64,000 nucleotides of DNA, from positions 65,534,001 to 65,598,000 of the forward strand of contig OX597817.1 in NCBI GenBank assembly GCA_951406725.2. The letters are read 5' to 3'. The notes under the pieces were generated by a model. That model did no database searches. It had not been told where the DNA came from and worked only from the letters and a program-made list of their open reading frames with translations. The first letter of the stretch is position 1; each line of letters begins with the position of its first letter. Position numbers and translations under genes: made by a program. Source of the stretch: Octopus vulgaris. Lineage: Eukaryota. Positions 4,236-43,685 of the stretch are shown here, piece after piece.

Positions 4236-4658
4236 CTTTCTTATTTCTTTACTGCCCACAAGGGGCTAAACACAGAGGGGACAAACAAGGACAGACAAAC
4301 GGATTAAGTCGATTATATCGACCCCAGTGCGTAACTGGTACTTATTTAATCGACCCCGAAAGGATGAAAGGCAAAGTCGACCTCGGCGGGATTCGAACTC
4401 AGAACGTAGCGGCAATCGGAATACCTATTTCTTTATTACCCACAAGGGGCTAAGCACAGAGGGGACAAACAAGGACAGACATAGGTATTAAGTCGAATAC
4501 ATCGACCCCAGTGCGTAATTGGTACTTAATTTATCGACCCCGAAAGGATGAAAGGCTAAGTCGACCTCGGCGGAATTTGAACTCACAACGTAACGGCAGA
4601 CGAAATACCGCTAAGCATTTCGCCCGGCGTGCTAACGTTTCTGCCAGCTCGCCGCCTT
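4236..4658 (-). mobile_element. tRNA-derived SINE family B with tandemly duplicated 3' body
   Basis: Minus strand ggcggcgagctggcagaaacgttagc...gagttcaaattccgccgaggtcgac. Segments 4236-4415 and 4425-4600 are direct repeats. Confidence 0.9.
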
Positions 4659-4669
4659 ATCTTTCTATC

Positions 4670-24530: not shown

Positions 24531-24841
24531 ATAATAGTTATCGCCATACTAATATGGCATTCTTATAAAAATAAGAATAAAGCTGTCCGCTTATTAGTTC
24601 CATGAGGCCATCGCCTTAAGTTAGCTATTTGATACACAAACTGTATCCCTTGTTCGAAGGTTATATGGATACAGTTTGTGTATCAAATAGCTAACTTAAG
24701 GCGATGGCCTCATGGAGCTAATAAGCGGACAGCTTTATTCTTATTTTTATAAGAATGCCATATTAGTATGGCGATAACTATTATTTTCCGGGAACGCTGC
24801 CGCTGTTCTCTTTTAGAGAGACTTAGTAATTTTAATATTTC
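24531..24841. mobile_element. Fold-back element in (TA)n: 118-bp arms (24531-24648 / 24667-24784), 18-nt loop, ~55-bp unpaired extension
   Basis: Arms are reverse complements with one mismatch seen (gttcc vs gctcc). (TA)n on both sides. Confidence 0.9.
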
Positions 24842-34130: not shown

Positions 34131-35784
34131 AAATATATGTATTTGTGTGTTTGTGTGTGTGCGTGTGTGTGTATATATGTATGTATGTTTGCATGCACGT
34201 ATGTGTATTTAAATGGCACTAAAACCAAGGATTGCTACTGTACGCACCGTTTGTCGACCATGATGTACAAATTACATTGTCGACCAGGATGCGGAAATTA
34301 TAATTACAGATTGCTTCCTGAATAGGCCGTGCCCAATGTAGAGTCTTTTAGCTTACACTAAACGTTTTCTTATTTCGCTTCTCCCTCCCGATCTAAACTT
34401 TTCAACATATTTCTCTCTTCGTCATCCTTTTTCAACCTTTGCGTTGAAAGAACCCATCAGTATGGTGTAGGTGGATTTGTGAGCTAGCAGGTCGGACATG
34501 TGCGATTGCCGAGTGGAGCCTAAAGAAATACTGCACACTCATGCATCAACTGGACAAAAAAGATCTGCATTGTATTTACTAGAGAATATTTCCACTTGAA
34601 CCCAAGAAGCAGCGTTATTTAACAGAGAGGATGATAATTTGTGCAATTGCAAACCAGAGAGAAATTTTCTTTAAAAACAAGCTATCAATTACAGAACGAC
34701 TAGAGAGTTTTCAAAGCAAATTATTTTCAATTGTAGAAATTTACAATGGCAAAGACCAAATTTTTGCACGATTTTCTCTCTGCCTTTTCAATCGCAAACA
34801 TTATTCTGTGACAGTGATCTTCTCTTGACCATGAAACAATTGACAAAATTAAGTTATCTAAAACAGTTCTCCTTGACTGCTATCAATAAAAACTTGGAGC
34901 ACTAAAACTCACCAACTGTTCCTCACCAGTGAGTGGTTTCTTATGTTCTTGCTTCCTCGTCATTCACTCCATAGAGTTTGCATGAGCTTATAATGCATAA
35001 CATGGATAGTTAAAGACTGGATTATCAGCTGAATAAATAAACATACTGCATAGAACAACTGCTCCCACGAGAAAAAAAGGCTTCTGAAAATCTCAACTAA
35101 GTGAAAAATGAGCAAAAGACTATGGGAGCACAAATAATACTAATAAAACTAATTAGAGTTTAATTTTCCTGATTTATCAGCTATCCAATAAGAAGAATTA
35201 TCCAAAAAGATTTATATTCTTATATCGCTATAATTATACTACTACAATTGCAAATTGTAGGTTATACGCAAATATAATTATGATGAACTATATAAAATAA
35301 AATCACAATAGATAATATTTCTGACTGTATAATTAATAATTGTAATATTTAATATTTTCATATTAATCTTAATCAGAGAAGTTGTTCAGAGGCAACTATC
35401 CAGAATAAAAGTTATGAAGGGCAATTATTTAAGGATAGTTACTTTGATGTCTACACACATTCACACACGCGCTTGCGCATGCACAAACACACATATGTAT
35501 ATGTGTGCATGTATGTATATATATATATGTGTGGGTGTATGTGTGCACACACACGCGCGCACACACACACACATACCCATGTGCATACATACATATAAAG
35601 GAAACATGACTTGAGGGAAATAATTCAACTATTGGTAATAAAATAAAAGGGAAACGTATTAAGCACCATACCCAAAAATTCTTAAATTAAAGCTTATCGT
35701 TTATTTGGAGAAAGAACATAATGACCTAGCGGCAATTATTAGCAACTGTCAAAAAAAAGGGGACGATAATTACATATAATCCTT

Positions 35785-35995
35785 TCTATTATTATCAAAA
35801 GGCCGGAAATTTTGAGGGAGGGGTCTAGTCGATTACTTTGACATTAGTGCTCAAATGATACTCCTTTATTGACCCCGAAAGGATGAAAGGCAAATTCGAC
35901 CTTGGCAGGATTTGAGCTCTGAACATAATGACGGACGAACAGTCACTAAACATTTTGCCCGGCATGATAACGATTCTGCTATCTCGCAGCCTTAA
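35785..35995 (-). mobile_element. SINE family B
   Basis: gaccccgaaaggatgaaaggcaaattcgacc...ctcgcagcctt matches 4530-4658. Confidence 0.8.
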
Positions 35996-36256
35996 GATAA
36001 TTTCAAATAACACAAATTAATTCCTTAAGTTAATTTACTTTCTTAGGGAAAAGACAGTCTGACAGTTATTTGCTGGTAGGAGACAACATTTACTGTTGTA
36101 CAATACACGATAGGCATTGAGGACAAATTTGCAGACTTATACAGTTACACAATTTGTTTGAATGCTTAGTTTTTGAAGTTGTAAGGTTTACCTTATTGTT
36201 AATAATATAAAATTAAGCAGCAAAATCAATTTTACAAGAAAAACTAATATTAATAC

Positions 36257-36613
36257 TACGGAGATGTACTCGCATAGCAAGTAATTTGATCTGAGATCGT
36301 GTGCTGAAACGAAAACAATTGCAGCGTGGGAGGTGTTTATAAGCCATTTAAGAAACACACAAAAGCCGTTCGATTCACTCCAACATTTAAGTTTAATTTG
36401 TCAAAATATTTTCGTCGCTAAAATCCGCGACCTGTTCACTGACAAAGTCCGTGCTGCATCACGGAGATGCAGCACGGACTTTGTCAGTGAACAGGTCGCG
36501 GATTTTAGCGACGAAAATATTTTTGACAAATTAAACTTAAATGTTGGAGTGAATCGAACGGCTTTTGTGTGTTTCTTAAATGGCTTATAAACACCTCCCA
36601 CGCTGCAATTGTT
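36257..36613. mobile_element. Snap-back retro-element with 147-bp arms, 5-nt loop, TSD and two hammerhead-like motifs
   Basis: Arms 36314-36460 / 36466-36613 are identical apart from a 1-nt indel. Flanked by the direct repeat aatattaatac (36246-36256, 36614-36624). Confidence 0.9.
36397..36446 (-). ncRNA. Minimal hammerhead ribozyme, G3-C8 core variant (mirror copy on + at 36480-36530)
   Basis: tttgtca GTGAACA G GTCGC ggatttta GCGAC GAA AATATT T tgacaaa: 7-bp stem I, 5-bp stem II, palindromic stem III. Confidence 0.7.
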
Positions 36614-39600
36614 AATATTAATACAAATTCTGAAAATTATTTATGTAATTATAGTAACTAGGAGAACGTTTTTCGAAATACTAATACGTTCATGAATATT
36701 AAAAAAGAATTTAATCACATTATTTTCCTTTTCCTTTTTCTTTCTTAATGCATATGCCGTAACTGTCTCTTATAAAACAAATTTTATCTTGAAGCCACTT
36801 CGTTTCATTGCCTCGTTGTAAAATTTGTAATGATTTTAGACGGATGTTCATAGTATGAAATGGTAGAAAGGCGGCGACTAATATTTTCGGATAAATTCTT
36901 TTCAGAATTTAGTGGGTGGTTTATATTAAGATGTAATACTTCTGTAGGTTCCAATAAGTGTGACTATTCCAAGCTACCAGGTTTAAAATTATGTCAAGAA
37001 AAAACGTTTGCTATGGTCATCTTTAATCTTTTTAATTTAGTTAAAACAATGATTTTTTTTCATCTATGGATTCATGCTCATTCAAATTCCATGAAATTAA
37101 CAGACAAAAATCTCTGCACAAACCTCCATGTAAACATTGGCTCAAGTATAAATAAATTTCAGATATAAGCCTTATTAAACCAGAAATGTTAGCTAAACCC
37201 AAGTTAGCACCGGTGCTACTAGCATTTTACTTTACTCATGGGTCATTGTCAAAGGATAACATAGGTTGTCTTATCTGCGTAATAATACTGACGTCAGTGT
37301 CACAAGTAGTTGTAAACAACTTAGCGTAATCTATTGCTTATTGAAGTAAATTTTTAATGACACAAGGGGAATTGTTAATAATGTCAAACTCCGTGAAATT
37401 ATGGATATGTATTGCGGATTCTATTAAAACAATTTTTTCTTTGTTCATTGATATATGAATTCATCAATGCCTTAATTACTTGCTTTACTGTTCATTACCT
37501 GTTTCACAGTGTTACTTCAGTAATTAATGTTAATTAGCAGCAACTTTGAAATTATATTCTCATTAGGAATCAACCTAAATTAACACAGCCGTTATTAATA
37601 TGTATTACCACTTGTGAACATAGCATATTTTCATTTTAACTTGCGTTGTCAATGTAGATTAACCAAACTCAATACATGTCAATACAAACTTAACATAGTC
37701 ACACCGGGGTATCCGTTAATAACTAATGTTGTAACACAGACGATCAACCAACAATAGACTCGTTACATAGTAACTTGATCTGTGAAAGATAGCAGCCAAA
37801 TTAGCTTTGAATTATTCCTATAAATTATTCACAAACAGCCTTGAAAAAGATATTTAAAACTACATTGCATAGTCTTTAGATACTTGACATCTGAAGAAAA
37901 AAAAAAGATAAACGCAAAGTCATATGATGATGATGATGATTATGATAAAGACAACAGTGAAAAAATAGCTTAAACAATTCTATATCGATATCACATGGTC
38001 AATGCTCGAAGATTGTTTGTCTGAGTTAACAGGTGCTGAACCTCATTACGTTGATGTTTAACTAATGATAATTAGTATTCAGCAATGAAAGCAACATTGA
38101 CTGGTACAGATAAGTGATTCTCATGACTTCATACTGTAAACCTATAGTTAACTAATCAAAACTAAACGTGTACCAATACTTATTTGCATCACATTATAAT
38201 TAACCAATTTAACTGGTTTGTCTCAGTTAATCACCGCGTAGATGTATTCTGAATAGATGGTACATGTATTGAACATTACTGATTATTGTTGGTGAGGAAT
38301 ATAGTCGATTACCTGAGTTCCAGATATATTACCGGTACTTTATTTCCGTTTCAAAACATACATAGCCGATACAAAATGTTCAACAGGGTTTAATTGGAGA
38401 GTGAGAAGAGTACAATATGGCCAGACTGTAGCACTGCGTAGGATACAAGTTACTCCGGCATATCATAACGTACGCTGCTGTTCTCAACTAATCAGAGGGA
38501 CGGATCTGTGGATTGCATCTAATCTTAAGACCGACTTCATATTTGCCATCTTTCTTTGATTCCTTGCCCGGTCAGATCAACGAATATCCCTGGGTGATTT
38601 TTCTGAGAAGCAATATGTACTTTTCATAGAATTATCAAGAGAAAATACAAAGGCGGTGCCTTGTCTTCTGTCGGGTATTTTTTTTCACATGACACTAGTT
38701 AGTCAGCTAAGTGCAGATAAGTTAACAACTGGTTGATAACTCAAGATTTAAAAGATCAGAACAAATACTGCAAATCATTTTGTTCTACTCCCAAACGATT
38801 GTTAGTTCACCGCCTAAAGCTCTACCTATCTATTATGGAATCAGGAGGTGAGAATAACTTGGCACATCTATGTGGATGTTTGACCTTCTAGGAAAAGTAA
38901 CTAGATCTTTCCCAGATTACTGCATGACTTCTGTCGTCTTTGAAATGCTGAGAGATTTGATCATGAAGTACTAAATACACAGTTCTCACGGAAAACCCTG
39001 CATGATCAAAAGTGAACCGCTTTTGAAGCAAGATTTGCGTAGCCATTTTTAAAGTTTCAGTTCTATAAAATCGAACCACTGACCATGCGGCTGTTAGAAA
39101 CAACGCATCAACTCAAATGTTCTCCGATCATGATCAGTCCATCGTTTAGGGGTATATAGGACTACATTATATCATGTACTCCTCCCATTTTTTAAGTCTG
39201 TAGGTTATGATTTAAAAGAGATGTATATGTTTAGGAGGTTAAGCGTTCGCTGAATGTCTTGTTTAAATGCATTGTGTTAGAGATTTGGGCAACAAAGTAT
39301 CAATTCCTATCATTATCAATCAATCTAAATATTTTCAAACTAAATCATTACACCAATTAATTAAAACTGCCTGTTTGAATTAGGATGTTAATTAAAACGG
39401 CTTAATTCGACGAATCTTTGTTCTTTATAAATCAAAGCTACTTTAAAGAATATGTTTAGGCTTTTACTATTCTACTATATTGGAAATACTTTACCTAAAA
39501 AACGTTAAAAAAGAAGCAGTCGTAATTATACTCCAAGTCTGTTAGATTCCACAATCAATACAATATGAAATATAAAAGGTTTATCGGAATGCTTCCTTGC

Positions 39601-42086: not shown

Positions 42087-42716
42087 ATAGTCAGTGGGTA
42101 CTTGAAATGCTGTCATTAATTTCGGTGTTTTAAAAAATATTCTGTTTTTTTACAATTTCACTTAATGTCTATTTAAGCTCATTATAATAGTTAGCAACTT
42201 CTCTAACAGCTTCAGCACAAATGCCAATTATTTTATTTTTAGCTTTTTGTTCTGGCATAAGTATTAATCTAATGCACCTCTATTATTCTTTCTCCGTATT
42301 TTGTTTTTAAATTTTATATTTCAGCATGATGTACTATGTCGTTTGTTAATTCCTAAATGTGCCTAAGTCGGCCTTCGTTTATTCCTGTTGTTTGTTTATC
42401 TGCTAAGATATATGTACTATTCGGTTGTTCCTTCATTAGATTTGTCATTGGCTCATTATTATTAGGTTCTGCTTTTTGATATTCAGATTGAAGCACGATA
42501 GGATTTCGTAGAGGGATGGAAAATATGCTTTGAAATATTTAATTATGCCTCGTTACATTCTGGATTTCAGTCCGAACTTTCAGCATGTCGAATATACATA
42601 AAATAACAATTTGCTAAATATTGTTTATATTTAGTGTATGTCTAATCGCAAAATGCGTGTCTTCGGATCAGTGTAATAAATAGATAAATAAATAAATAAA
42701 TAAATAAATAGTAGCA

Positions 42717-42936
42717 ATAATGATTTCAAATTTTGGCACAAGGCCATCAGTTCCGAGGGAGGGGATAAGACGATTAGATCGACCCTAGTATGCCACTGGT
42801 ACTTATTTTATAGCCCCCGAAAGAATGAAAGGCAAAGTAGGCCTCGGCGGAATTTGAACTGAGAACATAAAGACGGACGAAATACCGCCAAGCATTTTGC
42901 CATGCGTGCAAACGATTCTGCCAGATTACCGCCTTT
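42717..42936 (-). mobile_element. SINE family B
   Basis: Reverse complement of 43473-43685, including the tail ggccttgtgccaaaatttgaa. Confidence 0.9.
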
Positions 42937-42997
42937 CTAATAATAACAATTATCCTCCTCCTCCCCCTCCTCCTCCTCCTCCTCCTCCTCCTCCTCC

Positions 42998-43685
<688 letters not shown>

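Follow-up and report, generated by a model that had tools for sequence, protein, structure and literature searches.

A hairpin insertion in octopus DNA is probably the end unit of a Penelope-like element joined to an inverted copy of itself

A hairpin insertion in the window, the 64,000-nucleotide stretch of octopus DNA analysed here, is probably (roughly 0.6 by our estimate) the terminal unit of an abundant octopus repeat, a pLTR with a tail, standing head to head with an inverted, tail-less copy, the whole likely made from a linear RNA. The repeat family is most likely an endonuclease-type Penelope-like element (PLE). The link to Penelope drawn in an earlier note is supported by the pLTR-plus-tail layout, by two fixed ends, by the start of an open reading frame (ORF) and by PLE-type motifs in a protein, P0002. 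The layout is ordinary for Penelope-like elements, and the 9-mer at the hairpin apex is a useful mechanistic trace. The window itself is AT-rich and laden with microsatellites, is without real long ORFs and holds no other copy of the ~203-nt unit within its 64 kb.

The element is bracketed by a 12-bp direct repeat, the TSD, with an AT-rich left copy at 36245–36256 and a right copy at 36613–36624, base 36613 being common to the right copy and the end of the right arm. Such a 12-mer would arise by chance with a probability of 7e-7 at the given offset and of 3e-4 with 400 offsets allowed. The 11-bp repeat read previously (aatattaatac) is real, but it is part of this longer one. Inside the TSD, the arms at 36314–36460 and 36466–36613 are fully matched across 147 base pairs, apart from a single 1-nt indel, around a 5-nt loop (36461–36465), in line with the ~147 bp that had been described as copied back on itself. 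The sole indel sits in an A/T run inside the ribozyme discussed below. The left arm, on the minus strand, is a direct pLTR-like unit with its 5′ end at 36460; the right arm, recognized by its pairing with the left and lying on the plus strand, is an inverted pLTR-like copy with the first 11 codons of the ORF at 36580–36612. A 57-nt ‘tail’ (36257–36313, minus strand) is present at one end only. Together these parts give the direct/inverted order of pLTRs, with an inverted 5′ copy next to the direct one, that PLE insertion units show.

The 9-mer acggagatg, which was said to mark both the start of the element and the hairpin apex, does occur at 36258–36266 and again on the plus strand at 36461–36469; the two strands of the 64 kb window contain no further copy. 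At the apex it supplies the 5-nt loop and 4 nt that pair with 36457–36460. Its recurrence by chance has a probability of 1.7e-6 at the given place, and of 5.5e-4 for the five loop letters alone. The T at 36257 is assigned to the element because family copies end there, and the apex copy therefore begins one base later than the usual end.

Public sequencing runs give a view of the family beyond this copy. Part of 36000–36475 is contained in 20 of the 24 runs listed, and four of them (X1, X2, X4 and X17) were compared. The data are contigs over 36000–36475, which covers the left flank, the left arm and the apex, and neither RNA ends nor strand can be read from them; that X17 is RNA is a guess, and X1 is possibly not independent of the assembly. 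On the unit, depth reaches a peak of ~1e5 times the flank value, which marks a very abundant repeat and is not a copy number. Among the records listed, loose ends gather at 36257 (59, 50, 59 and 11 records in X1, X2, X4 and X17, respectively) and at 36313 (30 in X2 and 44 in X4). Family copies have these two fixed ends, 56 nt apart, next to mixed AT-rich flanks that are TA-rich at 36313, and the two ends flanking the tail are likely two RT start sites. The inverted arm stops no more than 1 nt from the second fixed end (opposite 36314), which a simple fold-back alone does not explain.

That stopping point fits either a cut made there or an origin by dual priming, in which the inverted arm would be a second cDNA, primed at the nick in the other strand; its synthesis would have begun at the second of the RT start sites, the template being either the same RNA or a sister transcript. 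Once one of the two cDNAs had restarted and run for 9 nt, microhomology of 4 nt would have joined them. It also suits dual priming that the PLE protein of Anolis acts on both strands, nicking and extending them, has two start sites and is a predicted dimer, according to the available text of PMC11167929. Yet two alleles rare in the family occur in both arms, the alternative allele making up 85–99.8% of depth at 36330 and 91–99% at 36380, whereas the RNA-like X17 contains very mixed copies; copies of two independent templates would be expected to differ in most cases, except where a single source locus dominates or the RT reads one RNA twice. Because both arms have these rare alleles in common, they point to one template, and dual priming strikes us as a doubtful, if serious, alternative to a single linear RNA folded back on its own copy.

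The flank contigs of X2 and X4 match the window to exactly 36256 and then continue for 66 and 1347 letters, respectively, off the element. To judge from where these contigs stop, both samples likely carry an empty site from which the insertion is absent, a state that the earlier note had suggested looking for in other individuals or species, and the reading of a young insertion with a TSD agrees with the 12-bp repeat and with these two departures. The insertion is real, and it is likely young and polymorphic. An artefact of a chimeric read or of the assembly would fit with the facts that no listed contig of the four runs spans the insertion stretch, that the flank contigs of X1 stop at 36193 and that the sole indel lies in a homopolymer run. 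Nevertheless, a fold-back at the read level would close neither with a 12-bp duplication and new flank nor at the second terminus of the family, the left flank of other samples departs at exactly 36256, and the window contains another, unrelated fold-back that is extended on one side. We consider an artefact hardly credible.

On the 5′ side, family copies reach GCTGCATC and then pass into unrelated, mixed AT-rich flanks (agreement 0.5–0.57). Loose ends from 36446 onward number at least 52, 30, 63 and 12 in the four runs, with at least 5 at 36460, and depth drops 341-, 388- and 580-fold from 36448–36463 to 36464–36475, and to 0 in X17. Joints in other copies are varied: among the 15 of 19 joints listed, six change strand, eight skip sequence and one goes back (36419 to 36315), and further joints, given without strand, lead from 36447 to 36320 and from 36447 to 36323. 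Residual depth over the apex (36464–36475) in X1, X2 and X4 is 3–8 times that of the flank.

These data bear on the earlier proposal that the template was a head-to-tail or circular hammerhead RNA of ~203 nt, a non-LTR retrozyme, whose junction the RT passed before folding back. Several observations speak for it: the 9-mer match is not due to chance, the apex bin retains a low, non-zero depth in three DNA runs, and some other copies contain back-junctions, such as that from 36419 to 36315. Circular PLE intermediates are proposed in the available part of PMC4209133, retrozyme circles of 200–350 nt are described from coral, mussel and axolotl (PMC7229834, in part), and retrozymes derive from pLTRs according to the accessible part of 10.64898/2026.07.22.740005. 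A circle nevertheless predicts one recurring junction from GCTGCATC to ACGGAGATG, and no joint from ~36460 to ~36258 occurs among the 15 of 19 joints listed, in contigs that are short and, with a family so repetitive, under-sample junctions and the 5′ end. Moreover, the 341-, 388- and 580-fold falls in depth and the loose ends that enter mixed flanks mean that most copies end before the apex sequence, the back-junctions land at 36315–36323 and at no single fixed place, and the ribozyme, minimal and with G3:C8 and U17, is not of the canonical retrozyme type. A tandem or circular 203-nt template thus finds little backing in the family at large, and we regard it as unlikely. The same low standing goes to the notion that some members of the family move as a 203-nt circle, which the natural G3:C8 hammerhead cuts and closes, and that the RT was caught passing the circle junction before it folded back; if this were true, the insertion would give direct evidence at the genome level for the circular intermediate of Penelope elements put forward in 2014.

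Comparison with non-LTR retrozymes goes both ways. As far as PMC7229834 was available, it describes tandemly arranged units that carry canonical type I hammerheads and are expressed in circular form. The octopus element resembles them in its unit of ~200 nt, low GC content, type I hammerhead, long TSD and relationship to pLTRs. In contrast, no tandem array or other tandem copy is seen in the window, the unit contains a likely ORF start, and its predicted hammerhead is minimal, has a G3:C8 pair and scores below Rfam thresholds, whereas that of the retrozymes is canonical and makes loop 1–loop 2 contacts. With its likely ORF start, the ~203-nt ‘monomer’ reads more as a pLTR plus tail than as a non-coding retrozyme unit.

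The depth over the apex also raises the question of whether the apex was made in this event at all: a source copy that already had the fold-back junction may have been copied whole, or the loop match may be an accident of repair. In favour of this, apex-bin depth is 3 times (X2) and 8 times (X4) that of the flank in samples that apparently lack the insertion. This residual depth may instead come from 5′ ends that align to 36466–36475; a perfect duplex of 147 bp would, we infer, be a poor template, and the chance probability of the loop match is 5.5e-4. An apex with such an origin seems quite improbable.

We return to a linear RNA with an internal start, a restart and a fold-back, which is the simplest account given the layout of Pen2a_Av and the self-priming proposed with it (PMC3846280, in part) and given that the tail is tied to two internal RT starts, downstream of the hammerhead, in the available text of PMC11167929. 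The endonuclease of the element would first nick AT-rich DNA, and the RT would start internally, ~30 codons into the ORF, and copy ~203 nt to the 5′ end of the RNA. It would then restart at the same internal site and halt after 9 nt, a move that would normally yield the partial tandems of the PLE class; the recurrence at the apex of the 9-mer from the element end upholds the re-entry at the element’s start that had been read here. Next, the new 3′ end would pair with 4 nt just made, and the strand would be copied back on itself. Finally, the copy would end or be cut at the second end of the family and be joined across the staggered nick. The restart and the steps after it are inferred from one junction. 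For PLE repeats that stand head to head, self-priming had been put forward by 2013 (PMC3846280, in the portion available). As an insertion product without RT or endonuclease, the unit would be incapable of autonomous movement.

In the available text of PMC8557442, the way in which PLEs form their tandem and inverted ends is described as still undefined. The present young copy, with the RT start site repeated at its apex, suggests that a restart and a fold-back are alternative results of a single step; with so many fold-back copies in the family, the two can be counted in any octopus assembly.

The inverted, 5′-truncated copy and the one-sided tail are described as typical of PLEs (PMC8557442, in part). 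A close counterpart is Pen2a_Av of Adineta vaga, for which the accessible portion of PMC3846280 reports a pLTR with the first 12 amino acids of the ORF, or 22 with the tail, next to a shorter inverted pLTR and with a 9-bp TSD; the corresponding values in the octopus element are 11 and 30 amino acids and 12 bp. Like Pen2a_Av and the scheme in PMC8557442, as far as these sources were available, the octopus element has a pLTR with the first codons, a one-sided tail, a shorter inverted pLTR placed head to head, a TSD of ~10 bp and an AT-rich target. It differs from them in having no ORF body between the repeats and in an apex loop that repeats the start of the tail. The tail is also longer, at 57 nt, than the 30–40 nt of described PLEs.

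Another likeness is to PAc, a Poseidon element of Anolis carolinensis, in which RT starts at two internal sites 111–118 nt into the ORF, downstream of a hammerhead and after AT-rich nicks (PMC11167929, available text). Both elements have a hammerhead motif near the ORF start, two ends that define a tail, and AT-rich nick sites. The octopus element ends 90 nt inside the ORF, against 111–118 nt in PAc, and its ATG lies 56 nt downstream of the predicted ribozyme cut, against 26 nt upstream in PAc.

The coding side of the argument starts from the ATG at 36347 on the minus strand, which opens 30 codons (36258–36347) running to the element end, likely the start of an autonomous Penelope-like ORF. 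The encoded peptide is identical at 27 of 30 positions to residues 1–30, the N terminus, of P0001 (XP_029654200.2), an Octopus sinensis gene model. The Octopus vulgaris protein P0002 in turn has 78% identity to P0001 residues 1–222 over 67% of the query. The species of these two proteins are the basis for taking the host to be an octopus. It contains PPKF, RWR and DKS and then a motif-1-like Y-x-L-x-K-x-H-K block, to be compared with the PLE motifs GxKF, RWK and DKG/DKT given in the available part of PMC8557442, and it ends at motif 1, so that it has N-terminal motifs of the Penelope RT type without the RT core or a GIY-YIG domain. In P0001, ~222 residues of the element’s protein are fused with a methyltransferase domain, through mis-annotation or in a chimeric transcript. 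P0001 resembles the window exactly as far as the end of the element, and for this reason its join of residues 1–30 to the Penelope-like part may be an artefact of the gene model. The link from the window peptide to PLE-type motifs runs through this chimeric model, and the family may encode a PLE-type RT.

Among 15 family variants in the ORF frame, six are CpG changes and five of the nine others are synonymous, counted from 15 of the 17 rows in range with two minor G>T rows left out; the five of nine lend weak support to a coding history. Searches for relatives gave little. P0002 had no Pfam or NCBIfam match, no meaningful PDB match and no relatives in viral or prokaryote contigs; P0001 residues 1–222 had no relative of 570 aa or more; the 30-aa window peptide as query returned no representatives; and pattern scans with the element DNA found nothing in viral contigs or genome contigs. 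A metagenome match, L001, covers 25 nt in DNA of 57% GC with no further likeness and was dismissed as chance. In the Atlas, P0001 gave nothing useful, and P0002 fell near unnamed rotifer and cnidarian clusters (0.92–0.97), with DUF8422 on 16–41% of members, which serves as a lead only. A single-sequence structure model of P0002 had a pLDDT of 34.5.

Placement of the family among PLE clades draws on the same motifs. The Hydra clade is characterized by RWK, DKT, a GxKF that is not conserved, (TA)n targets and an EN that lacks CCHH, to which P0002 offers RWR, DKS and PPKF, and the octopus repeat its TA-rich flanks at 36313; RWR and a third DK residue other than G are Hydra-like. The motif-1 block of P0002 looks partly Neptune-like. 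In P0002 the D-to-K distance spans 79 residues with Y at position 14, and in the Neptune1_Ac row, counted by eye, the distance is 82 residues with Y as in P0002. Hydra-1_Obim, in the available part of the PMC8557442 supplement, shares with our element an octopus host, AT/(TA)n targets and a hammerhead with U17, but has a different ORF start and a C3:G8 core. It was rejected as the family in question, and the available part of that supplement yielded no probe from the family of the octopus element. In O. vulgaris, 190 families of Penelope-like elements account for 6.83% of the assembly, according to the portion of the PMC13282606 supplement available, and the octopus element may be among these families of the O. 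vulgaris library; the accessible text of PMC8967140 likewise counts Penelope among the abundant octopus repeats.

The ribozyme noted previously has a predicted counterpart in the left copy at 36397–36446 (minus strand; fold z −3.72 and pattern scan), which fits a minimal type I hammerhead with a 7-bp stem I, one extra G, a 5-bp stem II, GAA, a palindromic 6-nt stem III and U17. Its core, GUGAACA, has G3:C8 in place of C3:G8, and the predicted cut lies between 36404 and 36403. A second copy, which has an additional T close to the predicted cut site, was found at 36480–36530 on the plus strand by pattern scan and arm pairing, and across the 128 kb of both strands of the window these two mirror copies were the only matches to the minimal-hammerhead pattern with swapped cores allowed. 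The claim of an embedded ribozyme thus stands as a fit to the minimal type, but one that falls below Rfam thresholds and, in the left copy, reads along the minus strand; Rfam at gathering thresholds gave no match in the window. The matches that Rfam gave by E-value near the element reflect generic hairpins, hit miRNA models whose thresholds they miss by far, and were set aside. In a transcript of the insertion, the arms would form a 147-bp duplex with the hammerhead buried inside it.

Such minimal hammerheads, with an extra base and a palindromic stem III, occur in PLE pLTRs, and pairs on opposite strands 100–700 bp apart have already been noted (PMC4209133, as available). The octopus motif departs from those described in that available text by G3:C8 in place of their U3-A8 variant, by G as the extra base where the consensus has H and by its 7-bp stem I. 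The G3:C8 core is the family majority in the consensus of the listed loose ends, with no listed variant in the core. In loop II (36419–36426), this copy differs from the family majority, while stem II and the G3:C8 core are kept, a pattern that hints at selection on the fold. U3:A8 is a natural core covariation (PMC3088659, in part), G3-C8 is mentioned as a tested variant in the available text of PMC3884650, and an engineered C3G/G8C pair partly restores cleavage in PAc (PMC11167929, likewise in part). What is an engineered partial-rescue mutant in PAc is, on sequence grounds, the natural core of the octopus element. In a literature search that was incomplete, one PMC4209133 supplement file lying outside it, and whose sources were available in part, G3:C8 appeared only as an engineered variant and U3:A8 as natural. 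The natural G3:C8 core, which appears fixed in a very abundant family, is a minor novelty. The predicted cut is 57 nt from the 5′ end (36404–36460), which equals the length of the tail (36257–36313), probably by coincidence.

A second, unrelated fold-back lies at 24531–24840, between two (TA)n runs, with 118-nt arms (24531–24648 and 24667–24784) that are 99% complementary and ~55 extra bases on the right only. A scan found no hammerhead core in it, and it looks like another Penelope-type inverted end plus tail. Copies of a further, short interspersed repeat family occur at 2145–2437, 4242–4659, 42716–42944 and 43464–43614 and also at 35776–36002, about 250 bp to the left of the hairpin insertion; this family may be an octopus SINE.
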